A DNA stretch of 64,000 nucleotides from an uncultured Acidimicrobiales bacterium. Lineage in GTDB: Bacteria; Actinomycetota; Acidimicrobiia; Acidimicrobiales; SHLQ01. The notes below the pieces were generated by a model. It did no database searches. It was given only the letters and a program-made list of their open reading frames with translations, and was not told where the DNA came from. Within the stretch, counting starts at the first letter, position 1. Each line of letters begins with the position of its first letter. The translations under genes were made by a program, and so were the position numbers. This document shows positions 6,574 through 32,254 of the stretch, piece by piece. The stretch lies in the NCBI GenBank assembly GCA_937922235.1, contig CAKZVC010000027.1:11968-75967 (forward strand), written 5' to 3'.

Positions 6574-6872
6574 TCAGGCAACGAGCGCAGTGACTACCGC
6601 TACGACATTGAACGCCATGCCTCGCATGTACATCCGGTTGAGGTCAACCCGAAGCTGTGCCATCTCGCTTCGCAACTCGCCGCGGAGGTCTGCCATCTCG
6701 CCACGGAGTTCGGCAGCAAGCCCTGACCCGAACGTGTGCATGTCGGCTCTCGTGACCAACTCGTCTGCAGGTTGTGAAGGAAGCAGTTCCATAAGGTTCT
6801 CGGCAGGTTCGGACCCCAGTGCCTGTTCCAGATGGTTGAACAGGTTTCGGCGGTCGCGTTCGGTGATGGCCA
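6574..6872 (-). CDS. Small coiled-coil protein with C-terminal membrane anchor (about 99 aa)
   Basis: The track ORF 6574-7239 is too long because it overlaps coxE. Internal ATG at 6872 gives MAITERDRRNLFNHLEQ..., a heptad-like region and a hydrophobic C-terminus AFNVVAVVTALVA. Confidence 0.45.
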
Positions 6873-6942
6873 TGATCAGTGTCTCATTTTCAGATGTTGT
6901 TCGTCGAGGGGGAACATTCATGGCTGTCCCGCGAGCACTGCC

Positions 6943-8088
6943 ATGACAGTAGCTATGGGGTCTGACACCGGCAGCAGCATCGTCGACCGGTTGGTCGATT
7001 TCGGAGCCGCGCTGCGCGACGTGGGCTTGCCCATCGGCACTGATGATGTGCTCGCCTTCTGCGCGGCTGTGGCCGAGCTGTCGCCGTCCGATTCCGAAGA
7101 CGTCTACTGGTGCGGCCGGGCAACGCTGGTGAACCGGCGCGACCACATTCCTGTCTACGACGAGGTGTTCCGCAATTTCTTCTTGCGCCCCGCGCCGAAT
7201 GCTGAGCGCAAGAAGACGAAGGAACGCAAGGCTCCCCAAGGATCAACCGGCACGATCAACGTGCCCGATGCCGAGCCAGGCGAACGCGAAGCCGAAGAGC
7301 CACCGCTAGTGCTCGGACTGCAGGCATCGTCGCTCGAGATCGAACGCAAGAAGCGGTTCTCGGCCTGCTCCGAAGCTGAGCTCGCAGCGGTGCGGCGCAT
7401 GATTGCCAAGATCCGCGTCGACCCACCGAAGCGTCGCACCCGCCGGTACGCGCCAGACCCGTCCGGAGGTCAGCTCGATATGCGCCGCATGGCCAGGCGT
7501 GCGATGACCATGAACGACAACGCTCCCGACCTGCTCCGCATGGATCGCAAAGAGAAGGCCCGGCCGCTCATCTTGTTGCTTGACATCTCGGGGTCGATGG
7601 CCGACCACTCTCGGAACCTGCTGCAGTTCGCCTATTCGATGCGTCGAGCAGCCCAGAAGGTCGAAGTGTTCTGCTTCGGCACCAGCCTGACCCGCATTAC
7701 TCCCCTACTCGACCGCCGCAACCCCGATGCCGCAATGCGCCTAGCGTCTGAGCGGGTTCTCGACTGGGATGGCGGAACCCGCATCGGTGATTCGGTTGAG
7801 ACGTTCATCAAGGACTGGGGTCGCCGTGGTCTGAGCCGTGGCGCCACGGTGATCATCTGCTCGGATGGGCTCGACCGTGGTAGCCCGGCCACGTTGTCGG
7901 AGGCCATGGAGAAGCTCGAACGACTGTCGCATCGCATCGTGTGGATGAACCCGATGTACGACCAAGACACCGGCGCCCCACCAACCCTTGCGATGTCGGT
8001 TTGTGGGCCACACATCGACGAGTACGCGTCGGGCAACAACCTCGAGAGCCTCGAAGCATTTGCGGCGATGCTCCCAAAGATCGGATGA
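6943..8088 (+). CDS. coxE: VWA domain protein (CoxE-like)
   Basis: MIDAS-type LLLDISGSM motif. C-terminal half is typical of the CoxE/VWA_CoxE family. Start taken at MTVAMGSD (6943) instead of 6832. Confidence 0.8.
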   Translation: MTVAMGSDTGSSIVDRLVDFGAALRDVGLPIGTDDVLAFCAAVAELSPSDSEDVYWCGRATLVNRRDHIPVYDEVFRNFFLRPAPNAERKKTKERKAPQGSTGTINVPDAEPGEREAEEPPLVLGLQASSLEIERKKRFSACSEAELAAVRRMIAKIRVDPPKRRTRRYAPDPSGGQLDMRRMARRAMTMNDNAPDLLRMDRKEKARPLILLLDISGSMADHSRNLLQFAYSMRRAAQKVEVFCFGTSLTRITPLLDRRNPDAAMRLASERVLDWDGGTRIGDSVETFIKDWGRRGLSRGATVIICSDGLDRGSPATLSEAMEKLERLSHRIVWMNPMYDQDTGAPPTLAMSVCGPHIDEYASGNNLESLEAFAAMLPKIG

Positions 8089-9364: not shown

Positions 9365-9688
9365 ATGCCGAAGTACATGCTGACCTATCACGGAACGATG
9401 TCTATGGAAGACATGCCAACCGACCCTGAAGCCATCGGACAGATGATGGCCGTTTGGGGCGCTTGGTACGAGAGCATGGGCGACGCCCTGGTCGACGGTG
9501 GAGCACCCACTTCGCACTCGACGGCGATCGACGCCAACGGTGCAGTCGATGCGCCGGCAAGCCTCACCGGCTACACCATCGTCGACTGTGCTGACATGGC
9601 AGCTGCGACCGCTATTGCCGAAGGCAGCCCCGTGCTCGCCGGCGGCCACACGGTGCAGATTTCCGAGTGCATCGACATGGGGATGTAG
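9365..9688 (+). CDS. YciI/DGPF-like family protein
   Basis: ATG at 9365 preceded by AGGAGGA. MPKYMLTYHG... start and ...GYTIVDCADMAAATAIAEGSP... are typical of YCII-related proteins. Confidence 0.6.
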   Translation: MPKYMLTYHGTMSMEDMPTDPEAIGQMMAVWGAWYESMGDALVDGGAPTSHSTAIDANGAVDAPASLTGYTIVDCADMAAATAIAEGSPVLAGGHTVQISECIDMGM

Positions 9689-9708
9689 CGGACCGAGGTG
9701 TAGTGCAA

Positions 9709-9794
9709 CCTGGTCCCGCGGGACCAGGGGCAAATCGTCGTGTCACACCCCACGAGTAGGCTGACTAGCGAAGCTTGCGAGCACCGTCAGCCTA
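9709..9794. repeat. 86-bp structured repeat, left (inverted) copy
   Basis: Reverse complement of 10906-10991 with 5 mismatches (hand alignment). Contains the 20-bp perfect palindrome cctggtcccgcgggaccagg (9709-9728) and a 9-bp stem TAGGCTGAC/GTCAGCCTA (9757-9794) around an AAGCTT-containing loop. Confidence 0.85.
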
Positions 9795-9830
9795 GGTCTT
9801 GGCCAATGAGTGGCTCACAAAATTCAATCT

Positions 9831-10823
9831 CTAGCTCGCTTGCTGGTGTCGGAAGCGATGGCACGTGGCGCACCGGAGTTCGAGCTCATCGACAACCGTC
9901 CGCTTGGACTCCTCGTAGTCAGGCACGTGGTCGTACTGAAGCAGTTCGCTGCTGCCGCAATCAAGGCACGTTCGGTCCCGCTCTTTCACCACACGTTTCT
10001 GCCGAGCGGTCGGATGGCGTTGCCGAGACGACGCGTTGATCGGACGGCCTTCGGCATCGTGAATGAGAGCTCGGATGAAGGACTCCCCGATCAAGCTGGC
10101 GACCGAGCTCATGGTCAGCGGGGTTCCGTCGTCGAGCGTCGATCCGTCACCCCGAACGTGGATGACGACTTCGGCCGCCACACTCGCTCCCCCATCGCCG
10201 AGCACCTCGACGAGCGCATCGGCCCGTTGCTGAGCGAGCGAGGGCCATTCGGTATCCGCCTCCTTGGGTTGATGCGCTTGACGCATGACCTGAGCGTCGA
10301 TCGCCGCAGCAAAGACGCCCGCTGCTGCCGGGCTTAGTCGACCAGCGACACTGACCATCCCATCACGCTCTGTCTGCCACCGGAGTGAGCGGGCGTCGTG
10401 ATGACGAGCATCGATGGCCTCGTCGTGTTCGTAACGCTGGAGCCACGCCGCAATCGCCTGCCCAAGCTCGCTCGCTGGCACGGTTTCCGCCAGCTCGAGG
10501 AGATCGAGCTCGTTCTCGGGAGTGGCCGACCGCGTTAGTTCCTTGGCCTTGCTGAACGAGATCCGGTGGCCACTCAACGCCTCAGCTGTCGCGGGCAGCT
10601 CTCGAAGACAACGCCCGATGCGAATCCACTCGTTCGCCGTGCGATGTGCGATCTCCAGCTTGTCAGCAATCCACCGACTTGCCGACGAGTACCCTGCGAG
10701 TGCCCACTCGGTGCTGTCTGCGAAGTCGGCCGCGAGGTGGACCACCTGTGACTGATTGTCGTTCGCTTCCCAGCCGATCTCGACCAGTTGCTCGCCGATA
10801 ACTCCCATGCCCAGAACCTTCAT
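9831..10823 (-). CDS. HNH endonuclease with DUF222-type N-terminal domain (REP13E12-like family)
   Basis: C-terminal ...RDRTCLDCGSSELLQYDHVPDYEESKRTVVDELELRCATCHRFRH (HNH). The N-terminal helical region matches the DUF222 pattern. Confidence 0.85.
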   Translation of the reverse strand: MKVLGMGVIGEQLVEIGWEANDNQSQVVHLAADFADSTEWALAGYSSASRWIADKLEIAHRTANEWIRIGRCLRELPATAEALSGHRISFSKAKELTRSATPENELDLLELAETVPASELGQAIAAWLQRYEHDEAIDARHHDARSLRWQTERDGMVSVAGRLSPAAAGVFAAAIDAQVMRQAHQPKEADTEWPSLAQQRADALVEVLGDGGASVAAEVVIHVRGDGSTLDDGTPLTMSSVASLIGESFIRALIHDAEGRPINASSRQRHPTARQKRVVKERDRTCLDCGSSELLQYDHVPDYEESKRTVVDELELRCATCHRFRHQQAS

Positions 10824-10905
10824 CTCGATGATCCGGGCGGTCTTCGTTGCGGACTGCCGACGCTGTCTTGGGGAGCATTTACCCCGTCACGAACTGCTCA
10901 ATACA

Positions 10906-10991
10906 TAGGCTGACGGTGCTCGCAAGCTTCGCTAGTCAGCCTACTGATGGGGTGTGACACGACGTTCGGCCCCTGGTCCCGCGGGACCAGG
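10906..10991. repeat. 86-bp structured repeat, right copy
   Basis: See 9709-9794. Palindrome at 10972-10991. Confidence 0.85.
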
Positions 10992-11114
10992 TGGTCACGG
11001 CGCCGCCCCCAGACAGGGGTGCACACACCCCCACCAAGATGCTCCTAGCCACCATGGTCGCTCATCGGTGGTTCCCGCAGGGTGTGTGTAACAACACCGT
11101 GAAGGGACAAGAAG

Positions 11115-12721: not shown

Positions 12722-12880
12722 TCAGTCGGGGTTGTAACCGACGCCTTCCATGAGGCGGCTGCGGCGGCTACCCATTGCTGGGAGGGCCGGCGGCGCTTCG
12801 TAGTCGGCTGGGCGAGGCTCGTGGGTGGCGCCGACGACGATGTCCTCAGCGAATCCATAGAGCTCCGGCGACGATGCCGC
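12722..12880 (-). pseudogene. Orphan 3'-terminal fragment (direct-repeat copy A) of the 120-aa membrane gene at 16946-17308
   Basis: 12726-12880 aligns to 16950-17115 with 9 mismatches and one 11-bp indel. It encodes ...LYGFAEDIVVGATHEPRPADYEAPPALPAMGSRRSRLMEGVGYNPD plus TGA but has no 5' part. Confidence 0.8.
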
Positions 12881-16945: not shown

Positions 16946-17308
16946 CTACTCGGGGTTGTAGCCGACGCCTTCCATGAGGCGGCTGCGGCGGCTGCCCATT
17001 GCTGGGAGGGCTGGCGGGTTCTCGTAGTCGGCTGGGCGAGGCTCGTGGGTGGCGCCGACGACGATGTCCTCGGCGAATCCGTAGAGCAGCGGGAGAGCTC
17101 CGGCGACGATGCCGCCGGTGGCGTTGACGCTTTGCAGCCCAGGCTCGATAGCGGCGGTGTCGCCCTTGATCTTCCACACGAGCTCAGCGCACTCTTCGAG
17201 CAGCGTCGCTACCCGACCGAGCTGGCTGCCCAGCACGTAGAGGAAGAACGCAAGCCCGGCGATGAGCAGCGTGATGGCAACAACGGAGAGAGTGACGAGT
17301 GTGCTCAT
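16946..17308 (-). CDS. Small single-pass membrane protein, paralog 5 of a tandem array, with Pro-rich C-terminal tail (120 aa)
   Basis: N-terminal TM LVTLSVVAITLLIAGLAFFLYVL. ATGA overlap with the upstream paralog. Confidence 0.6.
   Translation of the reverse strand: MSTLVTLSVVAITLLIAGLAFFLYVLGSQLGRVATLLEECAELVWKIKGDTAAIEPGLQSVNATGGIVAGALPLLYGFAEDIVVGATHEPRPADYENPPALPAMGSRRSRLMEGVGYNPE
16950..17115. repeat. Direct-repeat copy B (inside the 3' end of the intact gene 16946-17308)
   Basis: Hand alignment to 12726-12880. Confidence 0.85.
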
Positions 17309-17592
17309 GAGCGGACCTTTTCGTAGACACGGCCCAAGAACAGGTGATGGTTCAGGCCTTCGTTCAAGACACCCTCGACGCTCGTGGCGGTCGGGCCGAT
17401 CAACGACGTGTCGCCGGTGTTCGCAGCCGCTGCCTCAAGCGTGGCTTTGATCGCCGTGACTCGGGTCTCGATTGTGCTGACGAACTTGACCAGCAAGCTG
17501 AGCAACACCACGACAGCGACAATCACGATGAAGCCCAGGATGATGGCAGTCCACCAGAGCTCTTCGTTTCGTTCGGTCAATGCAAGCAGCAT
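17305..17592 (-). CDS. Small single-pass membrane protein, paralog 4 (95 aa)
   Basis: TM WWTAIILGFIVIVAVVVLLSLLV followed by an amphipathic helix. Junction TGATCATG with the upstream gene. Confidence 0.6.
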   Translation of the reverse strand: MLLALTERNEELWWTAIILGFIVIVAVVVLLSLLVKFVSTIETRVTAIKATLEAAAANTGDTSLIGPTATSVEGVLNEGLNHHLFLGRVYEKVRS

Positions 17593-17594
17593 GA

Positions 17595-17849
17595 TCAGCC
17601 CCCCAACTTTGCTCGGCCTCGGGCGAGGCCTTCGGTGATCGCGTTCGCAGACTCGATCGTTGTTTGCAGGCCGGCTAGGCCTGCAGTGTTCTTCACCGAC
17701 TGTTCAAGCGAAGCGTTGATATCGCTCGCTCGGTTTCCAATCGAATTGGCGAGAGTCAGGATCGACACGACGAGTGCAACCACCGCAAGCACGATGATGC
17801 CGCCGAGCCAGAACCCCCAGTCCCATCCAGACGCAGCAAATACGGTCAT
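17595..17849 (-). CDS. Small single-pass membrane protein, paralog 3 (84 aa)
   Basis: TM FWLGGIIVLAVVALVVSILTL. GAGGGG upstream of the ATG. Confidence 0.6.
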   Translation of the reverse strand: MTVFAASGWDWGFWLGGIIVLAVVALVVSILTLANSIGNRASDINASLEQSVKNTAGLAGLQTTIESANAITEGLARGRAKLGG

Positions 17850-17851
17850 AG

Positions 17852-18079
17852 CTAAATCCCCTCTGCGAAGTCTCGAACCGGCTTCAAGCTGGCATTTACG
17901 GACTCGACGACGGCAGGCACAGTCGAGGTCTTGTCAGCAATGACATCAACCCCACCGGTCAGCGCTTCGAGCGTCTTGTCGACTTGATACAAGTGGCCAA
18001 TGACTCGGCTGAGTCCAACGGCGGCAAAGACCACGATTAAGAGGGCGAGGAATACCGTCACCCAGGCAACAAATGGCAT
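17852..18079 (-). CDS. Small single-pass membrane protein, paralog 2 (75 aa)
   Basis: TM VAWVTVFLALLIVVFAAVGL. AGGAG upstream of the ATG. Confidence 0.6.
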   Translation of the reverse strand: MPFVAWVTVFLALLIVVFAAVGLSRVIGHLYQVDKTLEALTGGVDVIADKTSTVPAVVESVNASLKPVRDFAEGI

Positions 18080-18085
18080 GTTCTC

Positions 18086-18340
18086 CTACTCCCCTGGTAG
18101 CAACTTGGCGACCGAACCGGCGTAGCGCACAGCGCCATCGGCCACTTCGGCAACAGTCGTATCGGTCTGGGCCAGCAAGTCTGGCGTCGTGTCGAGATCG
18201 CCAATGGCAGCAACGCCGCCGGCGAGAATGTCGTCGCTTGCTTTGCGGATGCGTTCAACCGCACCGAGCAGACGGCTGAGCAACGCCACAGCCACCAGCG
18301 CTGCGACGAGCAGCAAGATGTTTCCAATCCACCACAACAT
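18086..18340 (-). CDS. Small single-pass membrane protein, paralog 1 (84 aa)
   Basis: TM WWIGNILLLVAALVAVALL. GGAGG 6 nt upstream, inside the coxG 3' end. Junction TGATCATG. Confidence 0.6.
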   Translation of the reverse strand: MLWWIGNILLLVAALVAVALLSRLLGAVERIRKASDDILAGGVAAIGDLDTTPDLLAQTDTTVAEVADGAVRYAGSVAKLLPGE

Positions 18341-18342
18341 GA

Positions 18343-18936
18343 TCAGCCTCCTACAAGAGCGGGGTCGTACGGCATAAAGAATCGACGGAACACTCGAAGC
18401 AGCGCCATCTTGGCGGCGGCGAGGCCAATGGCGAATCCGCTCGGGCTCGAAGCCGTTGCGGTCACGTCGTCGGGGTTGCGCCCCTCGGCGATGGCGTCCA
18501 TTCGGGCTTCGGCGTTGACGGCGAAATCACGGAGCAAGACCGCAGTGACATCGCCAACGAGACCACGTCCGTATTGGGCAGCAGCACCAGAGAGGTTCAG
18601 GTCCATGGACACATCGACCTTCGTGCCGCTCGATGTTGAAGCAAGCCCTGCGTCGACCATCATCTGCGCCTGGCCACGCCCCTTCTTCTCCGCACCTGCG
18701 GCATCGATCTTGAGGGTGTGGTTGTCGTGGTTGCGTTCGAGAATCTCGGCCTCGCCGCTGAACTCGAGCTTGACCGGACCGAGTCCGATCACCACGCCAC
18801 CGGCGTATTGATCGGGGCCGATCTCTTGATCGAGCTGCGTCCCGGGCAGGCACTTGGCCACACCGGGAATGTCCTCGAAGAACTCCCAGACTTTCTCGAT
18901 CGGATGATCGACTTCGAAACTGTCGGTTATGAGCAT
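18343..18936 (-). CDS. coxG: CoxG / SRPBCC family protein (CO dehydrogenase subunit G-like)
   Basis: MLITDSFEVDHPIEKVWEFFEDIPGVAKCLPG is a typical CoxG start. Start taken at the ATG 18936, which overlaps the upstream stop (TAATG). Confidence 0.8.
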   Translation of the reverse strand: MLITDSFEVDHPIEKVWEFFEDIPGVAKCLPGTQLDQEIGPDQYAGGVVIGLGPVKLEFSGEAEILERNHDNHTLKIDAAGAEKKGRGQAQMMVDAGLASTSSGTKVDVSMDLNLSGAAAQYGRGLVGDVTAVLLRDFAVNAEARMDAIAEGRNPDDVTATASSPSGFAIGLAAAKMALLRVFRRFFMPYDPALVGG

Positions 18937-19862
18937 TAGGCCCCCTGCTTGCTTTCGAACGCCGCCCGGCAACCCGGACAGCAGAAGTAATACGTTTCAT
19001 CGCCGAGCTCGAGCGGGTTGCTCGTGGGCACGGCATCGACCGTCATGCCGCAGATCGGGTCGATTGCGGTTTCTGGTTTCGGGGCGTCGATGACGACGCC
19101 GCCGGTGAATTCGCCTGCAGCTCGCCGTTGGACGAGCTCGGCCAAGATGGCCACAGCCATCTCCTTGTGGGTGGTGCTGCCGAGGTCGAGCCCGGCCGGA
19201 ATGCGGAGCGCATCGAGCTGAGATGGTTCGATCGACTGCGTTCCTAGAAAGTCTCGAATGCTGGCGCCTCGTTTGGCCGACGCCACCACACCCACATACG
19301 CCGGTGAGGCTTTGAGCGCTGCCATGAGGACGTCCTCGTCACCGTGACCTTGGGTTGCGATGACCACGATCGAGTTGGTGGACACGCGACCTTCGCTGAA
19401 GTCGGCGCCGTCGACCAGGTCGACCTGCCAGTCGAGCTGACCCGCTTGCTGGGCCAAGGTCTGCGACATCGGCGAATCGCCGACGATCACCAGGTGAGGC
19501 ATCGACATGACCGGCTCCAAGTAGATCTGCAGAGCTCCCTCTGACTGACACGACATTTCAACGGCCATGGTTCCCTCAGGCAGGTCGCCAAACCGATCGC
19601 TTGCTCCGAGTGCGAGCAAGCGGGGCTTTCCGGCTTCGAGGGTCTTGACCGCCTCACGTTTGAACACCGGCTCGGCGCATGCGCCACCGATCCACCCGTG
19701 CATCTCGCCCTCAGCGGTGTAGATCGCCCGTGAACCGTGCTGACCCGATGACGGACCTTCACGCCACACGACCGTGGCGAGCACGAACGGCTCGCCGCGG
19801 CGCGCCAGGTCGACGGCGCGCTCAAGCACACCCCAACCTTCAACGGCGCGACCTACGTCCAC
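18936..19862 (-). CDS. XdhC/CoxF-I family maturation protein fused to a C-terminal YHS/TRASH-type metal-binding domain
   Basis: XdhC N-terminal (FVLATVVWREGPSSG...GGACAEP) and Rossmann (HLVIVGDSPMSQTLAQQA) parts. C-terminal IDPICGMTVD...YYFCCPGCRAAFE. Confidence 0.8.
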   Translation of the reverse strand: MDVGRAVEGWGVLERAVDLARRGEPFVLATVVWREGPSSGQHGSRAIYTAEGEMHGWIGGACAEPVFKREAVKTLEAGKPRLLALGASDRFGDLPEGTMAVEMSCQSEGALQIYLEPVMSMPHLVIVGDSPMSQTLAQQAGQLDWQVDLVDGADFSEGRVSTNSIVVIATQGHGDEDVLMAALKASPAYVGVVASAKRGASIRDFLGTQSIEPSQLDALRIPAGLDLGSTTHKEMAVAILAELVQRRAAGEFTGGVVIDAPKPETAIDPICGMTVDAVPTSNPLELGDETYYFCCPGCRAAFESKQGA

Positions 19863-19871
19863 TCCCAGCTC

Positions 19872-22250
19872 CTAGTGGTTCTTCACCGGCGGATGGCCGG
19901 AGACGTCTTGGCCGGTCTGGATGGCTTCGTACACACGGTCTGGGAGCAGCGGCATGTCGATGTTGCGCACGCCGATGTCCTTCAGGGCATCCATGACGGC
20001 GTTCACGAACGCAGCTGGGCCGCCCACGGTGGCGCACTCGCCAATGCCCTTTGCACCAATGGGATGGTGCGGGCACGGGGTCACCACTTCGTGGAGCTCA
20101 AAGCCAGGGGTCTCCCACGCGGTTGGTAGCAGGTAGTCCATGTAGTTCGAACCAATGCAGTTGCCATCTTCGTCGAAGGTAATGAACTGCATGTTCGCCA
20201 TGGCGTACGCCTCGGTGAGGCCCCCCATGATCTGTCCTTCGACAATCATTGGGTTGATGCGAACACCGCAGTCGTCGACCGCAACCATGCGGATGACATC
20301 CCACACGCCGGTCAGCGGATCGATCTCGACGGTCGAGATGTAACAGGCGAATGGCCACGTGAGGTTCGGCGGGTCGTAGTATGCGTTGTTCTCAAGGCCA
20401 GGCTCCATGCCGTCAGGCACGTTGCTGTAGGCGGCCATTGCGCACTCTTGAATCGTGACGCCACGGTCCTGAGCTCCACGCACGTAAAAGCGACCGAGCT
20501 CCCACTCGATGTCCTCGTCAGATACCTCAAGGAGATGGGCGGCGATCTTGCGGGCCTTGGCCCGGATCTTGCGACTCACCATCGACACGGCAGCACCAGC
20601 AACCGGTGTCGAACGCGAGGCGTAGGTGCCCATGCCGAACGGTGCCGTGTCGGTGTCGCCCTCTTCGACCACGATGTCTTCGGCAGGTATGCCGAGCTCG
20701 TGGGCCACGATCTGGGCCCAAGTGGTTTCGTGGCCCTGGCCCTGGGTCTTGGCGCCGGTTCGGAGGATCGCTTTGCCGGTCATGTGAACCCGGAGCTCAG
20801 CCGAGTCGAACATCTTGATACCCAAGATGTCGTACTCACGACTGTTGCCAGCACCGAGCGGCTCGGTCATCGTCGAGATGCCCAAGCCCAACAGGCGGCC
20901 GCGCTTTGCCGCTTCGGCCTTCTGCTCTTGGAAGGTGTCGTAGTCGATAGCATCAAGGCCAATCTGTAGACACTTCTCGTACTGACCCGAATCGGTTAGG
21001 AAACCGAACGGCGTTCGCTTCGGGAAGTCGTCATCCTTCACCAAGTTGATGCGCCGGAACTCGGCCTGGTCCATGCCGAGATCGTCGGCGGCAGCCTGGA
21101 CCATTCGCTCCTGGAAGAACATCGCTTCGGTGACTCGGAACGAACATCGATACGCAACGCCACCGGGCGCCTTGTTTGTATAGACGCCCCGGTTGGTCAG
21201 GTAGGCGGTTGGAATGTCGTAGCAGGCAAAGGCTGAGTGGATAAGGCCGATCTTGAACTTCGATGGCTGGGCATCGGAGAAGAATGCGCCGTGATCGGAA
21301 ACGGTATCCATACGGACGCCGAGGATCTTGCCATCCTTTCGCATGGCGACCTTGCCCTTGAGGTACACATCGCGGCCAAAGCCCGTCGAGATCAGGTTGC
21401 CCGTCTTGTCTTCGATCCACTTGACCGGCTTCTCGAGGAGAATCGACGCAAGGATCGAGATGACATACCCCGGGTAAACCGGAACCTTGTTACCGAAACC
21501 GCCACCAAGGTCGGGGGCGATGATTCGGATCATGTGCTCAGGAATCTCGGCCACCATCGACACCGCGGCACGCACGATGTGCGGCGCCTGGCTCGTCATG
21601 TAGACGGTGAGCTTCGAGGTCGACCGGTCATAGTCGGCAATCGAGCCGCACGCTTCGATCGGGCTCGGGTGCGAGCGTGGGTAGTGCAGGTCGATCTCGG
21701 AGACGACGTCAGCCTCGGCGAAGGCACGGTCGGTTCCTTCTCGATCGCCCACCTCCCAATCGAAGATGACGTTGTTGGACTGGTTGACCTTGTCATCACG
21801 AATGAGCACGGCGTCGTCGGCCATTGCCTGGGTCGGGTTGACGATCGGCGGGAGCGGTTCGTAATCGACGACGATTGCCTCGACGCCATCACGAGCAATG
21901 TAGGGGTCGTCGGCAATAACGGCGCAGACCTCTTGCCCCTGGAAGCGAACCTTGTCAGTGGCGAGCACGGCTTGGGTGTCGTACGACAGCGTTGGCATCC
22001 ACGCGAGGTTGCGGGCGGCCATCATTTCGCCGGTCATGACCATGCGCACACCGGGGATGGCGTAGGCCGCACTGGTGTCGATCGACTTGATACGAGCGTG
22101 AGCGAGCGGGCTACGCAGGATCTCCATATGGAGCATGCCCGGCAGCACCACGTCGTCTACGTAGTTGCCCTTGCCTCGGATAAACCGGTTGTCTTCGACA
22201 CGGCGACGGCTTGCACCGAGACCGCCAATTTTGACTTCGTCGAGTGCCAT
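19872..22250 (-). CDS. coxL: Form-I aerobic CO dehydrogenase large (Mo-Cu, MCD) subunit
   Basis: 792 aa of the xanthine-oxidase family. Carries the form-I active-site loop VAYRCSFR (AYRCSFR at 21135-21155, verified on the DNA). Confidence 0.93.
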
Positions 22251-22927
22251 CAGGCGTCTCCTCCTGTGTCTTCCGCAATCGCAGATTCGTCGCTGCGCTC
22301 CTCGGACTGCTCTGCTGACTCTTCCTTAGCTTCTTCTTGTGCACCCGGTGCGGGAGCTGCAGCCTCTGGGGCTGCCCCCATGGATGCCACCGCTGCGGCT
22401 GGGTCGGCATCACCACGCATCTTTGCCGCGGCCCACAACACCGCCTTGACGATGTTCTGATAACCCGTGCAGCGGCACAGGTTGCCAGACAGCGCCCAGC
22501 GCACCTCGTCCTCGGTCGGGTTCGGGTTCTCATCGAGCAGCGCCTTTGCCGACATCATCATGCCGGGAGTGCAGAACCCACACTGCAACCCGTGCTCGTC
22601 CTTGAAGCCCTCCTGGATTGGGTGGAGTTCGCTGGCAGTTGCCATGCCCTCGACCGTCATCACCTCACGTCCGTTGGCCTGCACGGCAAACACAGTGCAG
22701 CTCTTCACCGGAGCACCGTCCATCAGCACCGTGCACGCACCACAGTTCGTGGTGTCGCAACCCGTGTGGGTACCAGTGAGGCGAAACCCATTACGGATGA
22801 GGTGGGCCAGCAACAGTCGTGGCTCGATCTGGGCAGCCTTCGACTCACCGTTGATCTTGATATCGACCCGAGTCGTCTGGATCTCATCGGTAGCCGCGGG
22901 CTGGAGTTCTTCAAAGAGGCTCGTCAT
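22250..22927 (-). CDS. coxS: CO dehydrogenase small [2Fe-2S] subunit with about 60-aa acidic Ala/Pro/Glu-rich C-terminal tail
   Basis: Cys motifs [11 protein letters not shown] and CGFCTPG...CRCTGY. Located between coxM and coxL. Confidence 0.9.
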
Positions 22928-23799
22928 TACGCAACCTGCATTTCTGATCGTTGGACATTGGCGATAATTCGGGTGACGAAGGTCGAGATGATATGGCGCT
23001 TGTAGTCGGCGCTTCCCCGGTGGTCACCTCGTGGTGACGACGCTGCGGCAGCGAGCTCGGCGGCCTTGTCGACCGAGGCCTCGTCGAGGCTCGTGCCGAT
23101 AAGGGCCTGCGCTGCCTCTTCGGCGTTAATCGTTTGCGCTCCGACACCCACGAGCCCGATGCCTGCGTTCTTGACCACGCCGCCTGACATGTCGAGTGCA
23201 ACCGCAACTGCGGCAGTGGCAAAGTCGCCGACTCGACGTTCGAGCTTGAGGTAGCCACCGGTGCGAGTGCCTTGGGCGTTCGGCACGACAGCTTCGATTG
23301 CGAGCTCGTCACGGTCGAGCACCGTGGTGAACGGCCCGGAGACGAAATCCTTCACTTCAACCGCACGCTTGCCGTTCGGACCTTGGGCGATGATCGACCC
23401 GCCGAGAGCCACCATGCAGGCAGCCCAATCGCCTTGCGGATCGGCGTGACACACCGATCCAACGAAGGTGCCTCGGGTACGCACGATTGGGTCGGCGACA
23501 AGGGGTGCAGCAGCTGCGAGTAGCGGCTGGTGCTCGGCCAGGACCGACGACTTCTCCAAGTCGGCGTGACGGCAGAGCGCACCGATCCGGAACGAGCCGT
23601 CGGCGTCTGCCCGGTGATATCCGAGGTCAGGAATGTTGTTGATGTCGACCAAAAGGGCCGGGCTCGCAAAGCGGAGCTTCATCATCGGAATAAGGCTCTG
23701 ACCGCCGGCGAGCACCTTGGCGTCGTCGTTCGCTCCAAGGAGCGCAATGGCTTCCTCGACGCTGGTTGGAGCTTCATAACGGAAGCGGGAAGGGAACAT
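22927..23799 (-). CDS. coxM: CO dehydrogenase medium FAD-binding subunit
   Basis: 290 aa. [21 protein letters not shown]...[13 protein letters not shown] is typical of the FAD_binding_5 / CO_deh_flav_C family. Confidence 0.9.
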
Positions 23800-24348
23800 G
23801 AGTACTCGGTTTCTCTTCTAGGAATGATCGACTGGGATGACTGGCGTTACTCGCCTGGGTCCGGGACGGCGCGAGGCAGCGAATCCGGATCGGGGTCGGG
23901 GCGCTTCTCCTGGTGGGGAGGCCATGGCCCCTGCACGGGCTGGCTTGCGACTTTCAGGTGATCAACAAACGCGGGCCACGCCCACACCGTCGGCCCAGGG
24001 CCTTCTTTCGGTGTTTCTTCGATGAGCTCGTACAGCCTCGGATTTCCTTGGCTCTTCCCCGTCGACTCAATCGGCACTACGCGTTCCCCCCGTATGTTGC
24101 GCCACAACCACAAATTGTGACACTCGACACCATAGGGTGACCATGGACACGCCAGCTAGTTGGATGAGGATTTCTTCCCAGTGGTCCAAGGCAGCTGCGA
24201 ACCCTGAAGCCCGCAAATCCAGCGGCGGAAGCACAGGCGAATGTGTCTGGCCATGTCGAAGCCTCGGACGAAGGAATTTCCTTGCCGGTGTAAGAAAGTT
24301 CTGCGTGCTGCGTCTGATTGGATACGACGAGGTACAGGAGGCCCGCTC

Positions 24349-25827
24349 ATGACATCCCGGCACGTGTCTGCCCTGGTGGCGCTAGCAATCGCGGTAACAG
24401 CATGCAGCTCGGTGACAAGCGAGAACGGTTCGGCCACCACATCGACAACCACCGTGGTCCAGACAACGACCATTGAACAGACAACGACGACCACCGCGAC
24501 GACTACCCCATCAACTGCTGCGAGCAACACGACAGCCACGCCGACAACGACCACACCGACCGAGGTGACCGTTGAGTGGATCGTGCAGGTGCTCAACAAC
24601 GGCGGCGAAGTGACCACGGCTGAAATCGAACAGCGGTTCAGCCCGAGCTTCCTTGCGGAGATCCCCGCCGAGCAGATCGTGGCACTCTTCCCGCAGCTCG
24701 TGTCGGGGCTCGAACTACCGGTCGCTCCTGACAGCATCGAGACCGTAGACGGCATCTGGGAAAAGACGGCACTGATCGCATCTGATGGCGCCCGCCTCCC
24801 TGTCGAACTCGCAGTCTCGCCAGGCACGCCTCCGAAGATCCTGGGCATCTTGTTCGGGCAAATCGAATTCGCCGAGAAAGCAACGATCGAATCGATCGAC
24901 GTCCGGCTAAACGAGCTCGGTCAACAATCGTCGCTTGGGGTGTACGAGGTCACCAACGGCACGTGCACTGTCGTCCACCAATTGCGAGCCGACCAACCGA
25001 TCGTGCTCGGGTCGATCTTCAAGCTTTGGGTTCTCTCCGCACTCGCCAACGAGATCGATGCAGGCAGAGCAAGCTGGAACGAAACCGTTCCGGTCACCGA
25101 CGAACTTCGCAGCAGCCCCGACGGTGAGATCTTCTTTCTGGAGACGGGCACCGAGGTCTCCCTACAAGACTTGGCCGAAGCGATGATCTCCCTTTCGGAT
25201 AACACGGCGACCGACATGCTTGTCAACCGCCTTGGCCGCTCCGCAGTCGAGGCAGTCCTCGATGACCTTGGCATCGACAACCCGACCAATCGACCAATAC
25301 TCTCGACAGGCAACCTGTTCAGCATCAAGTTCGATCCCGACGCTCCAAACTCCGATGACTATCGAGCACTAGATGAGTCCGGCAAGCGAGAGCTGTTAGA
25401 GCAGCTCGACGCGCGGGCCGTGCGGTGGGTGGCCGAGGACCTTTCACTCGATGAACTCGCAGAGCTCACCAACTCCGAAGGCGTTCCGCTCGACCAACCA
25501 CGGGACTTCGATATCGAATGGTTCGCAACCGCTGAGCAGATCTGTCGCACCTACCTTCGCCTCAACGCTCAGGCCCAAACGGACGGGCTCGAAGTCGTGG
25601 CCGACATTCTTGAAGTGAATCCGGGTGTCGACTTCGATACAGACCGTTGGCCAACCATTCGCTATAAGGGCGGATCCGAGCCTGGCGTCCTTGCCATGGC
25701 TTGGTGGATTGAAGGGAACGACGCTCGCCGCTACGTAGTCGTCGGCGGGATTACCGACGCCGACGCGGCGCTCGATGAGTTTGCTGCCACTAGCGTCCTC
25801 TCATCAGCCGTCGAGCTCGTCGAATGA
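24349..25827 (+). CDS. Lipoprotein serine hydrolase, class-A beta-lactamase-like fold, with Thr-rich linker
   Basis: Lipobox AIAVTAC|SS and a poly-Thr linker. Motifs SIFK (SxxK), SDN and KGG(S) in the correct order. AGGAGG upstream of ATG 24349. Confidence 0.75.
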   Translation: MTSRHVSALVALAIAVTACSSVTSENGSATTSTTTVVQTTTIEQTTTTTATTTPSTAASNTTATPTTTTPTEVTVEWIVQVLNNGGEVTTAEIEQRFSPSFLAEIPAEQIVALFPQLVSGLELPVAPDSIETVDGIWEKTALIASDGARLPVELAVSPGTPPKILGILFGQIEFAEKATIESIDVRLNELGQQSSLGVYEVTNGTCTVVHQLRADQPIVLGSIFKLWVLSALANEIDAGRASWNETVPVTDELRSSPDGEIFFLETGTEVSLQDLAEAMISLSDNTATDMLVNRLGRSAVEAVLDDLGIDNPTNRPILSTGNLFSIKFDPDAPNSDDYRALDESGKRELLEQLDARAVRWVAEDLSLDELAELTNSEGVPLDQPRDFDIEWFATAEQICRTYLRLNAQAQTDGLEVVADILEVNPGVDFDTDRWPTIRYKGGSEPGVLAMAWWIEGNDARRYVVVGGITDADAALDEFAATSVLSSAVELVE

Positions 25828-26315
25828 GCCGATCCGTCGACCAACAGACAGTGTTCGACAGCTGGATGACTGAGCACCGGGGCATCATCACAAAGATCGT
25901 CCGAAGCTTTACTGCACACGACTCGGATGCTGAAGACCTCACGCAAGACATCAGCTTCGCCTTATGGCGATCGATCCCGTCGTTTCGTGGCGAAGCGAAA
26001 CCGTCAACATGGATCTGGCGGATCGCACTGAACCAGGCAATCTCGTGGAAACGAACCGCCCCCGAGAGCCACGCTGATATCGATGCCGTGGGAGCGGCGG
26101 TTCGTGATGGTGCGGCCGACGGTGTGATGGTCGACCGGATCTACGAAGCCATCCGCACTCTTGTACCTATCGACAGGTCGATCATCATGCTGTCCCTTGA
26201 CGGCTTCACCTACGCCGAGATTGCCGACATCACAGGGCTGACCGAGTCGAACGTCGGCGCCCGTCTAACCCGGACTCGCACCCGACTTACCAGCCACCTG
26301 GAGGACGCTCCATGA
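25824..26315 (+). CDS. ECF-type RNA polymerase sigma factor
   Basis: Region 2 (DAEDLTQDISFALWRSIPSFRG) and region 4 (YAEIADITGLTESNVGARLTRTR). ATGA overlap with the upstream gene. Confidence 0.85.
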   Translation: MSRSVDQQTVFDSWMTEHRGIITKIVRSFTAHDSDAEDLTQDISFALWRSIPSFRGEAKPSTWIWRIALNQAISWKRTAPESHADIDAVGAAVRDGAADGVMVDRIYEAIRTLVPIDRSIIMLSLDGFTYAEIADITGLTESNVGARLTRTRTRLTSHLEDAP

Positions 26316-26923
26316 ACGAGCAGTTCAACCCCAACGACCCCTTGCAGCAAGCGTGGGCAACCCAGGACGACAGTCTGCGTCCGGCAGATGTCGCCGCTGC
26401 CAGCACATCAACGGCTGATGCTCATCGCAAGGAGCAACGCCATCTCGTGTGGCTCAACCTTCGCGAAATCATCCCTTCATTCTTTACGGCTGCGATCTTC
26501 TCCACAATTGCGCCAACGATTCAGCGCACGTTCGCGATGTACATCGCAGCAGGCCTTTTCTTGTTCATCGGCATCTACATGGCCGCCAATTCGATTCGGC
26601 ACCACCGGGCCGATGCTCGTTGGGGAGCATCGGTGCGCGAGCAGATGGAACGGCGGCTTGACCAACTCCACCACCGAGCCAACCTGTACCGGACAACTCC
26701 GATTTGGTACTTCTTGCCAGCAACCGTTGCGATGGGACTGGTGATCTATGCACTCGGAGCCGAGGATGCTGGACTATCTGCGCAGATTTTCGCTGGTCTG
26801 TTCGCGCTCACGATTCTCGCAAGCTGGCGGAAAGCCAAGAAGGAAGGCCAGGTCTATATCGATGAGATTGAGCGGCTGTCGCCGATCCTTGCCGACTTCG
26901 TCGAGCAGACTGACGACCATTAG
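26312..26923 (+). CDS. Multi-pass membrane protein, possible cognate anti-sigma factor
   Basis: ATGA overlap with the sigma gene and about 4 hydrophobic helices. No conserved anti-sigma motif recognised. Confidence 0.45.
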   Translation: MNEQFNPNDPLQQAWATQDDSLRPADVAAASTSTADAHRKEQRHLVWLNLREIIPSFFTAAIFSTIAPTIQRTFAMYIAAGLFLFIGIYMAANSIRHHRADARWGASVREQMERRLDQLHHRANLYRTTPIWYFLPATVAMGLVIYALGAEDAGLSAQIFAGLFALTILASWRKAKKEGQVYIDEIERLSPILADFVEQTDDH

Positions 26924-27019
26924 CTGTCCATACGGCATCCGAGTTGACCGCGGCTAGTTCGTCGCATGGGGGGTGACCTCCCCGGTAACGGCTGGCAACG
27001 TCGGTGTTAGGTTCCTCAC

Positions 27020-28018
27020 ATGACGCTCCGAAGACTTGCTCTCGCGGCCTCCCTTGCATGTGCCTTGGCGGGCTGTTCATTCGACTTCTCCGTTGGCGGA
27101 GGTGAGTCTGCTGCCGACACGGCTGTCCGAGTTATCGAGGAGGAGCTGGTCGATGCGATCGGGCTCGGCCCGATCGAAGCCACCTGCAACTCCCCCGCGA
27201 CCGAAGAGGTCGGCGCCACCTGGACATGCACGGGCGACGCTGGTGGCACAACCATCGACTTCGTTGCCGAGCTGGAGACCGAGACCTTCGTCAATGTGGA
27301 GACAACCAACCTGATCGTCGGCAGTCAGGTTGAGCGAGTTTCGGTCGAGGCTGGCAAGGTCATCTCCGACCTTGGAGGGTTTGAGCTTCCTGCCGATGCC
27401 GTTGACTGCGGGACAGACTCGATCGTCCTCGGAGTGGACAACACAATGCCGTGCACCGTGACCATCGACGGTGAGGCGATCGATACAACGATCGAGATAA
27501 CCGACCTCGAGAACACTTCGTTCGAGATCGACACCGACCCGCTGGCTCCAGCGCTCGCCATCCCGAGTTTGAAAGCCACGGCAGAGCAGACCATCGAAGG
27601 CGAGCTGGCCGACGTGATTGGTCTTGGACCCATCGACGCGTCGTGCGACCAACCGCCGTCCACCGACGCTGATGCTTCGTGGACCTGCACGGGTGAGGTC
27701 GGTGGCCAGACTGCCGAGTTCGTGGCGGTCACCGACGGCGATGCCAACGTAAACGTCAACACGACCAACGTGATTCTGGCCGATCAAGTGTCTGCGTTCG
27801 CCATCGCTGCGATGCAACAGCTAAATCAGTCGGTTGGCGCTTCCCTGCCCGACGAGGCCATGGACTGTGGGAGCGAGGCGATCATCATGCCGCCATCGCT
27901 CGAGTTCGTGTGTGCCCTCGACGCAGGAAGCGAAGGTGTGTATGACGCAACGATCACGGTGACCGACCCCGACACCGGAGCGTTCACGGTCGTCGTCGGC
28001 GACACGCCTCGGGGCTAG
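27020..28018 (+). CDS. Lipoprotein with two DUF4333-like repeats
   Basis: Lipobox LACALAGC|S. Internal duplication: ...LVDAIGLGPIEATCNSP...WTCTGDAGG... versus ...LADVIGLGPIDASCDQP...WTCTGEVGG... Confidence 0.65.
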   Translation: MTLRRLALAASLACALAGCSFDFSVGGGESAADTAVRVIEEELVDAIGLGPIEATCNSPATEEVGATWTCTGDAGGTTIDFVAELETETFVNVETTNLIVGSQVERVSVEAGKVISDLGGFELPADAVDCGTDSIVLGVDNTMPCTVTIDGEAIDTTIEITDLENTSFEIDTDPLAPALAIPSLKATAEQTIEGELADVIGLGPIDASCDQPPSTDADASWTCTGEVGGQTAEFVAVTDGDANVNVNTTNVILADQVSAFAIAAMQQLNQSVGASLPDEAMDCGSEAIIMPPSLEFVCALDAGSEGVYDATITVTDPDTGAFTVVVGDTPRG

Positions 28019-28025
28019 ACGCGCC

Positions 28026-28110
28026 TAGGCTTCCGGTGCTCGCAAGCTTCGCTAGGTAGCCTACTTCGGGGGTCTGACAGTGACCGACGGGCCTGGTCCC
28101 CCGGGACCAA
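28026..28110. repeat. Third, diverged solo copy of the 86-bp structured repeat (same orientation as 10906-10991)
   Basis: taggcttccggtgctcgcaagcttcgctaggtagcctac...cctggtcccccgggaccaa. Both hairpins are retained. Confidence 0.7.
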
Positions 28111-28320
28111 CCTCTGCGCTCCAGGCTCGCATTCGCTCGAGCGGGCTCACCACCACCGGAAAAACTTGGAAAAGGCGGACAATTACGTGCGCCCGCATAG
28201 CGATTTTCGCTCGCTGGAGACTACGTTGAGGTTTCCATAAGTGAACGACGGTCAGTTCGCTTCCGCCCCTCCTCCTCGTGCCCTGACGCTTTGGAAAATT
28301 CTGATCCACGGAGCAGATAA

Positions 28321-28821
28321 TTGTTCGCTGACCGGCGCCGCCGCATCATCACCTTTGTGGTCATTGTCTTTGCGCTGTCCGCAATCTGGCCGCTGACGCG
28401 AACCCCAGCAGGACGATCGGTCAGCGCCCGGATCGTCTCGACGACCACCACGACCGAACCGGTACCCACAACCACGACTCGGCCGTACGAGCCCGAGTCA
28501 GTGCTGTCGTATCCCACCGACTGTCTTGTCGGTGAGCTCGGCAAGACTCGACTTCGCTCGGTCACCTGCGACAAGCCCCACGACCTCGAGGTGTACCGCG
28601 AGGTACTCATCGAGCGATCCTTTACCGAGTTCAATGACGCGATCATCGAGTCATACGCCCGAGACGTCTGCCTGACGTCGTTCGCGGCCCAGTATCCCGA
28701 CAACGAGCGCTACGAGCTCACGTACACCCGACCAACGCAAGACTCGTGGGACGAGTCGTTTCGCGTTGTGCGGTGCATGTTGTTTGACCCAGCCGGCCCG
28801 AAAGAGGGCCGGGCGAGATAG
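28321..28821 (+). CDS. Membrane-anchored protein, septum-formation-family-like extracellular domain
   Basis: TTG start, N-terminal TM and Thr-rich linker. The C...C.KPHDLEVY...C...VRC pattern resembles the Septum_form domain. Confidence 0.5.
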   Translation: MFADRRRRIITFVVIVFALSAIWPLTRTPAGRSVSARIVSTTTTTEPVPTTTTRPYEPESVLSYPTDCLVGELGKTRLRSVTCDKPHDLEVYREVLIERSFTEFNDAIIESYARDVCLTSFAAQYPDNERYELTYTRPTQDSWDESFRVVRCMLFDPAGPKEGRAR

Positions 28822-28832
28822 GCCCCTGGCGG

Positions 28833-31052: not shown

Positions 31053-32254
31053 GCGCCAACGCTGACGATGATGGCGTCTCCCTGACCGCCACCGCCGCAC
31101 AGCCCAGCAGCACCGATGCCCCCGCCGCGACGACGAAGTTCGTGCATCAAGGCGAGCGTGATGCGGTTGCCCGACATGCCGAGAGGATGCCCAACAGCGA
31201 TCGCGCCGCCATTGACGTTGACGATGTCGGTTGAGACGCCGAGCTCGGCTGCCGATGCGATTCCGACGGCAGCGAATGCCTCGTTGATCTCATAGAGCGA
31301 TATATCAGACACGTCGACACCAGCGGTCTCGGCGGCCTTGCGAATGGCACGTGATGGCTGGTGCAGGAGCGAGCAGTTGTCCGGCCCGGCGACCATGCCG
31401 TAGCCCAGCACCGTGGCGAGCGGCTCGACGCCGAGCTCGTCTGCTCGGGCGCGACTCGTGACGATCATCGCCGATGCGCCATCTGACAGCTGCGATGCGT
31501 TCCCGGCAGTAATCGTTCCTTCGCCAACGAAGGCGGGTCGGAGCTTGCTAAGCGAAGCTGCATCGGTGCCAGCACGAACGCCCTCGTCGTCTTCGAACGC
31601 GATCGGGTCGGCCTTTCGTTGTGGCACCGACACTGTGAACGTTTCCGATCGGAGGATCCCGTCTTTGATCGCGCGGGCGGCGCGGTCGTGCGATGCCGCG
31701 GCGAACGCGTCTTGGTCGTCACGGGAGATCGCTTCGGCGCCCGCGTACAAGTCGGTGGCCTCACCCATGATGCGAGATTCGACCGCGCAGGTGAGACCGT
31801 CGTACTGCAGCGAATCGACCAGCTTGCCGTCGCCATAGCCATAGCCGGTACGGCTTTTCATGAGCAGGTGCGGACTGTTGCTCATCGACTCCATGCCACC
31901 AGCGATAACCGTCGTTGCCTGGCCGGTCATGATCTGCATGGCGGCGTAGTTGATCGCCTGCATGCCCGACAAGCACACCTTGTTGACTGTGGTGGCATCG
32001 ACCGTGAGCGGGATGCCGCCCTTCACCGCCGCGTTGCGAGCGCCCGACTGGCCTTCGCCTGCCGTGAGCACATGGCCCATCACGACCGAATCGATCGCAT
32101 CCGCGGCGACCCCAGTGCGTTCGAGGACGGCAGCGATGGCGAGACCGCCAAGGTCGGTTCCGCTGAACCCGCTGAGCGAACCGTTGAACCGGCCGATCGG
32201 CGTGCGAGCTCCGTCGAGAATGACAACGTCGTCTGGGCTTTGTGTGTGAGTCAT
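31049..32254 (-). CDS. Acetyl-CoA C-acetyltransferase (thiolase II)
   Basis: 401 aa. Has VNKVCLSGMQA (active-site Cys) and the C-terminal GGGQG motif. Confidence 0.9.
   Translation of the reverse strand: MTHTQSPDDVVILDGARTPIGRFNGSLSGFSGTDLGGLAIAAVLERTGVAADAIDSVVMGHVLTAGEGQSGARNAAVKGGIPLTVDATTVNKVCLSGMQAINYAAMQIMTGQATTVIAGGMESMSNSPHLLMKSRTGYGYGDGKLVDSLQYDGLTCAVESRIMGEATDLYAGAEAISRDDQDAFAAASHDRAARAIKDGILRSETFTVSVPQRKADPIAFEDDEGVRAGTDAASLSKLRPAFVGEGTITAGNASQLSDGASAMIVTSRARADELGVEPLATVLGYGMVAGPDNCSLLHQPSRAIRKAAETAGVDVSDISLYEINEAFAAVGIASAAELGVSTDIVNVNGGAIAVGHPLGMSGNRITLALMHELRRRGGGIGAAGLCGGGGQGDAIIVSVGA

Follow-up and report, generated by a model that had tools for sequence, protein, structure and literature searches.

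The locus described here raises the question of whether a DUF222-HNH gene can sit at the centre of a genetic unit with defined ends of its own. Genes of this family, also called 13E12, are widespread in Actinobacteria and have been known since the Mycobacterium tuberculosis genome. In a 64,000-nucleotide (nt) stretch of contig CAKZVC010000027.1 from an uncultured Acidimicrobiales bacterium (hereafter the window), one such gene lies between two long inverted repeats, which we call arms. A first-pass annotation proposed that gene and repeats together could form a self-contained mobile unit. We followed this up in the source genome (G000, a 4.4-Mb metagenome-assembled genome of 61% G+C), in its nearest relative (G025) and in further genomes and metagenome populations. 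The reading we favour, at roughly even confidence, is that the locus is a damage-induced, low-copy selfish nuclease cassette whose palindromes would be its own binding and cleavage sites, with defined ends but not a classical transposon.

Terminal arms as promoter modules

The features of the locus are as follows (coordinates in the window; 'no strand' for symmetrical elements).

9708–9812, plus strand: distal (left) arm, inverted relative to the gene; covariance model score 111.6 bits; well-conserved core at 9708–9796
9709–9728, no strand: outer 20-bp perfect palindrome of the left arm, CCTGGTCCCGCGGGACCAGG, candidate binding or cleavage site of the predicted ParB/Noc-like domain
9741–9762, plus strand: PafBC/RecA-NDp-type promoter of the left arm, TGTCAC-N10-TAGGCT, directed into the 3′ end of the HNH gene (antisense)
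9757–9794, no strand: hairpin 2 of the left arm, a 9-bp stem TAGGCTGAC (9757–9765) / GTCAGCCTA (9786–9794) that overlaps the −10 box
9831–10823, minus strand: DUF222-HNH (13E12-type) nuclease gene, 330 amino acids (aa), with a CxxC...DH...CxxCH motif at residues 286–326
10888–10992, minus strand: proximal (right) promoter arm, upstream of the HNH gene and in the same orientation; covariance model score 113.1 bits
10906–10943, no strand: hairpin 2 of the right arm, counterpart of that in the left arm
10938–10959, minus strand: PafBC/RecA-NDp-type promoter of the HNH gene, TGTCAC (10959–10954), N10, TAGGCT (10943–10938)
10972–10991, no strand: outer 20-bp perfect palindrome of the right arm, same sequence CCTGGTCCCGCGGGACCAGG
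28018–28112, minus strand: third, solo arm copy, 81% identical, with the palindrome core mutated to CCGGGG; covariance model score 93.5 bits

A repeat search returned the two arms as an inverted repeat of 105 nt with 89% complementarity. The other inverted repeats within the same 2.7 kb reach only 15 nt, so the pair lies far beyond chance. BLAST gave 94.25% identity over the first 87 nt, equivalent to five mismatches, in agreement with the earlier hand alignment of 9709–9794 as the reverse complement of 10906–10991; the arms extend beyond those 86-nt copies. The rest of the anatomy set out in the first-pass annotation also held: gaps of 36 and 82 nt separate the 86-nt copies from the only long open reading frame (ORF) between the arms, a 20-bp perfect palindrome occupies each outer end, and the 9-bp stem encloses a 20-nt loop containing AAGCTT. 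The inner end of the distal arm lies 18–36 nt from the HNH stop codon. Each arm is one copy of a module of approximately 95 nt consisting of outer palindrome, PafBC/RecA-NDp promoter and hairpin. The promoter had escaped the earlier annotation, as had four further copies of the module in the genome, including the third window copy.

The published PafBC consensus, tGTCgg(N10)tA(N3)T, combines a −26 element with a −10 box and has no −35 box (PMC8635444). The TGTCAC-N10-TAGGCT of the arms is invariant across all six genome copies, and over TCGTGTCACACCCCATC the proximal promoter matches the recA promoter of G000 letter for letter: the sequence upstream of recA (TCGTGTCACACCCCATCTCTACTGT) and that of the proximal arm (TCGTGTCACACCCCATCAGTAGGCT) share 17 consecutive nucleotides at equal spacing. 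Transcription is predicted to start near 10931, approximately 7 nt past the −10 box. At the sequence level, the assignment as a PafBC-dependent (RecA-NDp) DNA-damage promoter is certain. An extended form of the motif, GTGTCAnA-N9-TAnnnT, occurs at approximately 22 sites in G000, recA included, and the promoter class is validated in this genome because many of these sites have an ATG or GTG 6–8 nt past the −10 box, in the leaderless style. From domain content and arrangement, we infer that a tandem pair of WYL-domain genes on contig C95 of G000, organized in a pafBC-like manner, is pafBC. The approximately 22 sites constitute a candidate DNA-damage regulon for this uncultured Acidimicrobiales lineage.

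A promoter motif lies within 300 nt upstream of 21 of 31 DUF222-HNH loci examined from the taxonomic family. Across protein clades the order of elements is the same, although their sequences differ: a CCGCGG palindrome (for example GGTCCCGCGGGACC here and ACGCGTCCGCGGACGCGT in other clades), a promoter 7–55 nt later, and then a hairpin that starts in or just after the −10 box, with stems TAGGCTGAC/GTCAGCCTA, GCTGGCTATC/GATAGCCAGC, GGCTGTCGATG/CATCGACAGCC or GTCGAGC/GCTCGAC depending on the clade. Because this palindrome–promoter–hairpin–gene layout recurs across clades, the proximal arm is, on comparative grounds, the native control region of the HNH gene. This bears directly on an alternative raised at the outset, that the HNH gene arrived by chance at a site already flanked by two copies of a repetitive extragenic palindromic (REP) or miniature inverted-repeat transposable element (MITE)-like repeat. 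Solo copies of the repeat do exist, as that idea would need. However, the upstream arm supplies the promoter of the gene, the arm pair is kept in seven genomes at different loci, and the repeat is confined to the genus, where it adjoins the HNH gene of this clade at six of the ten loci fetched from relatives. The conserved layout with different sequences upstream of other clades' HNH genes in effect rules a chance landing out, and of all the explanations considered here it is the one to which we give the least credence.

The hairpins raise a different alternative. Both are present in the DNA minimum-energy and centroid folds, with modest z-scores of −1.5 to −2.4. Alignment of the six genome copies revealed compensatory changes in both stems around the invariant TGTCA..TAGGCT motif. 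In an alignment of 19 distinct arms, pairing holds in 94.6% of pair cells and double changes affect 9 of 17 pairs, and none of 500 shuffles reaches the covariation score; the 20-nt loop of hairpin 2, TAGCGAAGCTTGCGAGCACC, is invariant among the aligned copies. Covarying stems around an invariant loop, with that loop at approximately +1 to +20 of the predicted transcript, could be read as RNA folding, the arms then encoding a small RNA, a leader or a guide-like partner of the nuclease. Four observations speak against this. An Rfam search of the region gave chance-level matches only (E > 1). Hairpin 2 is unlikely to act as RNA made from the arm promoter since the predicted transcription start falls within it, leaving the 5′ half of the stem untranscribed. 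The palindrome lies upstream of the promoter altogether. Finally, the wobble cells comprise 10 G·U and 8 A·C, with no bias towards one strand, and because the two are equally common the constraint appears to act on the dyad symmetry of the DNA and not on a single RNA strand. We have therefore set structured RNA aside as highly improbable, on the absence of wobble asymmetry and the position of the start site.

A short motif just past the −10 box, AGCG(R)AGCT, is common to the invariant loop (TAGCGAAGCTTGCG, 9766–9785 and 10915–10934) and to the hairpin GTCGAGCGGAGCTCGAC of other clades (loci L077, L088, L092, L108 and L109). The loop also contains GCGAAGC, a sequence known as an unusually stable DNA mini-hairpin.

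The outer palindromes and the nuclease

The outer palindrome CCTGGTCCCGCGGGACCAGG has CCGCGG as its core, and none of 100 shuffles gave three matches to it. We considered whether CCGCGG palindromes are simply an abundant genome-wide repeat and rejected this, as only 19 of the 663 perfect palindromes of at least 14 nt in the genome have that core. On the protein tree, the GTCCCGCGGGAC palindrome is restricted to one clade (support 100/99), and none of 500 shuffles was equally clustered. That the palindrome type follows the protein clade is consistent with the protein recognizing it. Among arms linked to an HNH gene, 11 of 13 retain an unmutated palindrome core, compared with 3 of 8 solo arms (p = 0.056), which hints that solo arms are decaying.

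The HNH protein probably starts at the second ATG (M6), which is preceded by GAAGG. It matches Pfam DUF222 (PF02720) over residues 20–283 with E = 8.7e-15 (55.3 bits against a cut-off of 24.4), while the HNH family PF01844 scores 21.1 bits, slightly below its cut-off of 21.4. The zinc-finger cysteines and the catalytic Asp-His (C286/C289, D298-H299, C318/C321-H322 and H326) show little or no variation among 32 homologues. Homologues carry names such as DUF222, 13E12 repeat family and HNH endonuclease. Four HNH families in PHROGs match the protein, and matches to HNH proteins in the PDB are weak. Neither NCBIfam nor PADLOC, the latter a set of anti-phage defence models, yielded a match, and we consequently rejected assignment to a known anti-phage defence system on the PADLOC result. 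No transposase family in Pfam, NCBIfam or PHROGs matches the product of this sole ORF between the arms.

An AlphaFold model built from the 32 sequences had a predicted local distance difference test (pLDDT) score of 87. Foldseek comparison of the model yielded a single coherent fold cluster, that of the DNA-binding domain of ParB/Spo0J/Noc in complex with its palindromic site, plus small HNH nucleases. The ParB/Spo0J/Noc matches have probabilities of 0.9–0.98 and weak E-values of 0.16–0.5; for 6y93_A, the template modelling (TM) score normalized to the target was 0.75, with a root-mean-square deviation of 2.7 Å over 112 columns and a probability of 0.98. Searching PDB sequences uncovered no relative beyond the weak HNH matches and no ParB match at the sequence level. 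From this cluster, the N-terminal part of the modelled protein appears to resemble a ParB/Noc palindrome-binding domain. ParB and Noc bind 14–16-bp palindromes as dimers, and the bases at the middle of the Noc site, CCCGGG, can be compared with the CCGCGG core of the arms.

G000 has one intact DUF222-HNH gene, one frameshifted paralogue and one HNH fragment (on contig C52), while its relatives have up to five such genes each, drawn from several clades. The frameshifted paralogue (C1:148044-149409) belongs to another clade, and within its reading frame the palindrome GCGTCCGCGGACGC occurs twice, with 64 nt between the copies.

Two-armed units and solo arms across the genus

A covariance model of the arm detected the element in 10 of 26 genomes of the genus (G000 counted) and in none of 35 genomes of other genera. 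G000 has six copies: two flank the HNH gene, one is the solo arm at 28018–28112 and three lie on other contigs. Each relative has between none and two. The repeat is thus rare, and a third of its copies in G000 sit at the HNH gene; had it been abundant and unlinked to HNH genes, the mobile unit proposed by the first-pass annotation would have lost its footing, as it would if orthologous loci lacked the repeats, but those of G025 and G008 keep them.

Full arms flank the gene on both sides in G000, G025 (whose protein is 89% identical), G002 and G016 and in the metagenome population P0019. In G008, G003, G018 and the metagenome population P0005, the proximal arm is complete and the distal side has the palindrome. 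The proposal of a self-contained unit gains from this distribution: the arm–HNH–arm arrangement occurs in seven genomes of the genus and two metagenome populations, at no fewer than five loci whose flanks are mostly unrelated between genomes, and it can enclose a passenger gene. The passenger, an ORF of 321–322 aa beside the HNH gene and inside the arms, was seen in G002 and the P0019 population, and had no match in Pfam, NCBIfam, PADLOC, PHROGs or PDB sequences. It lies downstream of the HNH gene on the same strand (L048:5155-6120 in G002; L133:5002-5970). In the P0005 population we considered whether the unit is inverted relative to gene X, a small membrane-protein gene on the proximal side of the unit in G000 (window 16946–17308), and rejected this, as the 120-aa neighbour there is unrelated to X.

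The neighbourhood of the unit differs between relatives. Homology between G000 and G025 stops within 3 nt of the left outer palindrome. The DNA between gene X and the proximal palindrome measures 8 nt in G025, whereas it extends to approximately 1.2 kb in G008 and to 5.95 kb in G000; on the other side, a YCII-like gene (window 9365–9688) is separated from the distal palindrome by 1.7 kb in G025 and by 20 nt in G000. In these alignments, variable DNA abuts the outer palindromes exactly and synteny breaks there. The segment 10993–16947 is entirely missing from G025. In this part of the window, direct repeats of 143 nt at 12726–12868 and 16950–17092 (92% identical) duplicate the 3′ end of gene X, which is on the minus strand, and enclose a 4.2-kb segment with ORFs of 834 and 417 aa. 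Neither ORF matched NCBIfam, PADLOC or PHROGs, and Pfam, searched with the 834-aa ORF only, likewise gave nothing. The segment looks like an integrated islet that restored the 3′ end of its target.

At a tRNA-Leu locus of G000 that carries a solo arm, homology with three relatives ends exactly at the start of the palindrome, just past the tRNA terminator, and the arm is absent from all three. At the C25 locus, four relatives carry other DNA and no arm, and one has a deletion that starts at the arm position. That genome, G022 (L118, C11), has lost approximately 2.9 kb relative to G000 C25:33609-33703, where the solo arm follows a conserved vWA-type gene; the deletion runs from the arm position to inside a bile-acid:sodium-symporter-like gene. 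The third arm of the window lies in a 6.9-kb segment (24140–31058) that also contains an extracytoplasmic function (ECF) sigma factor gene and lipoprotein genes and that is missing from G025, whose contig is otherwise collinear (16948–24139 and from 31059 onward). By these comparisons, solo arms occupy accessory segments or positions at which synteny breaks. A further PafBC-type promoter, GTGTCAGACCCCATAGCTACTGT, is found at 6946–6968 on the minus strand of the window; the gene that follows it (approximately 6574–6938, minus strand) is homologous to the convergent gene beside a solo arm of G017 (L032), and both homologues are small proteins with ELRGEMA-type repeats.

Six of eight solo arms point at the 3′ end of a convergent gene, as does the distal arm of the unit, so we rejected the idea that solo arms are promoters of protein genes. 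The G+C content of third codon positions was of no use for separating mirror frames at 61% G+C. The same orientation is what antisense promoters or terminators would show, and it is one of several observations in favour of a purely regulatory repeat. Here, the arms would be a damage promoter with operator-like palindromes, and the HNH protein an ordinary chromosomal nuclease that regulates its own expression via its ParB-like domain; distal and solo copies would be antisense promoters, terminator-like elements or relics, and their locations the outcome of ordinary rearrangement. The certainty of the promoter at the sequence level, the upstream arm as native 5′ region in all clades, the single copy per genome, the locus common to G000, G025 and G008 and the lack of recent jumps among identical proteins are all in keeping with it. 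Other observations are harder to accommodate. In functional promoters, conservation is limited to the core motifs, but arms from unrelated loci share 79–95% identity over approximately 90 nt, and the other PafBC promoters of G000 have neither palindrome nor hairpin. The spacing between palindrome and promoter varies between clades over the range given above, unlike that of a phased operator. Solo arms are missing at the orthologous sites of the nearest relatives and are located at synteny breaks, and the two-armed unit recurs at several loci and can take in a passenger. We regard a purely regulatory role as the main contender, albeit one that is probably not the answer.

The copy numbers bear on another possibility, that the arms are dispersed hairpin repeats maintained or spread in trans by a domesticated, non-mobile single-copy HNH protein, in the manner of REP sequences and REP-associated tyrosine transposases (RAYTs). 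A single-copy gene between inverted hairpin repeats, with solo copies in intergenic DNA, is the arrangement expected. However, there are four solo copies in G000 and between none and two in relatives, not tens to hundreds, and an HUH/Y1 enzyme is absent. The solo copies hold a complete promoter, making them full modules and not minimal hairpins, and their palindromes are degraded more often than HNH-linked ones. We consider this explanation improbable.

A proposed nuclease cassette and its known counterparts

The selfish-cassette reading would account for these features as follows. DNA damage would activate PafBC, the promoter of the proximal arm would fire and the nuclease would be switched on; the distal inverted arm would close the cassette and fire antisense. 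The ParB/Noc-like N-terminal domain may bind the palindromes as a dimer, and after damage induction the HNH domain may cut at or beside them. Host break repair, by homologous recombination or by end-joining, which is common in Actinobacteria, could then copy, move, maintain or rearrange the cassette, and the same repair could capture or delete adjoining DNA and leave behind solo arms that decay.

A number of observations weigh against this reading. The Foldseek E-values behind the ParB/Noc resemblance are weak (0.16–0.34), and physical linkage alone could also make the palindrome type follow the protein clade. The whole distal arm is limited to a few genomes and populations, others having the palindrome only, and many family members are without a distal repeat. 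G000, G025 and G008 share one locus, by the 3′ end of gene X, and much of the distribution of the unit is vertical, from that common locus. There is one copy of this clade per genome, and identical HNH proteins were always found in the same neighbourhood across samples, which gives no sign of recent jumps. No cleavage, binding or movement was observed, and we know of no strand-transfer activity for HNH nucleases.

The search for empty sites suggested by the first-pass annotation was equally unfavourable: neither a clean empty site nor a target-site duplication emerged from the 26 genomes of the genus or from metagenome contigs. Tracing the left-flank gene across the genus, mapping the flanks of relatives' units onto G000 and searching the concatenated flanks of the four solo arms across the genus all gave the same result. 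No direct repeat adjoins the arms in G000, and no genome has the YCII-like gene and gene X adjacent. One ENA contig encodes an identical flank protein but stops 69 nt beyond the arm and so tells nothing about an empty site.

Comparison with known systems places the locus in the 13E12/REP13E12 family by domain architecture and promoter type. It has the DUF222 plus HNH architecture (PF02720 + PF01844) of REP13E12 in M. tuberculosis, where 13E12 genes are damage-induced and have RecA_NDp and/or LexA boxes (PMC3381160); the RecA-NDp promoter type is present here too, as read from sequence alone. The REP13E12 loci of M. tuberculosis are 405-fold enriched at inversion breakpoints (PMC13157036). They are also gene-conversion hotspots and contain a prophage attachment site, and a 2026 preprint described them as loci that 'lack defined biological function' (PMC13061034). 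Genome plasticity is a shared property, seen here as synteny breakpoints. In contrast to REP13E12, this locus has modular inverted arms of approximately 95 nt, solo arms and a palindrome that tracks the clade, and each genome has a single copy of its clade, against 19 DUF222 genes in M. tuberculosis. In the literature searched, to 2026, no modular inverted arms, cognate palindromes or ParB-like domain were described for REP13E12 loci.

The arm promoters have the exact geometry of PafBC promoters (tGTCnn-N10-tAnnnT, no −35 box), down to the 17 nt identical to the recA promoter of G000. They differ in their setting: each forms the middle part of a repeated, structured module, with a palindrome on one side and, on the other, a hairpin overlapping the −10 box. 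The module also exists as inverted and solo copies with no gene following them. With its 105-nt, 89% complementary arms, the unit shares terminal inverted repeats with classical insertion sequences and transposons, but it has no transposase, is present once per genome and, among identical proteins, keeps the same neighbours. The likeness to REP/RAYT systems (REPtrons) lies in the single-copy nuclease-type gene between inverted hairpin repeats with intergenic solo copies; the differences are an HNH nuclease with a predicted ParB-like domain in place of HUH/Y1, a mere handful of solo copies and a full promoter within the repeats. Free-standing HNH homing genes (I-HmuI-type, phage mob) also combine HNH with a helix-turn-helix-type domain and look selfish and patchy in distribution. 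Such genes, however, do not have inverted repeats or copies of their own site at their borders, and we found here no intact target allele or homing-type polymorphism of presence and absence. ParB and Noc on their parS and NBS palindromes are the best structural match of the N-terminal part of the predicted model, but there is no homology at the sequence level, no CTPase domain was identified, and the domain is fused to a nuclease and would not serve segregation.

These comparisons give the family a concrete anatomy: end modules, a candidate recognition site in the palindrome that varies with clade, a candidate domain to read it (ParB/Noc-like) and a PafBC promoter identical to that of recA. 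A binding and cleavage test is now feasible, and its outcome could explain the rearrangement hotspots at these loci. More tentatively, and with the balance of probability tilted against it, we suggest that DUF222-HNH (13E12-type) genes in general form a distinct class of damage-activated selfish elements, in which a ParB/Noc-like domain would bind lineage-specific terminal palindromes, the HNH domain would cut there after PafBC has sensed damage, and host repair, not a transposase, would move, copy or invert the cassette and scramble neighbouring DNA. If this is true, the hotspots of inversion, gene conversion and insertion reported at the REP13E12 loci of M. tuberculosis would owe their origin to breaks made by the nuclease and not just to paralogues being homologous.

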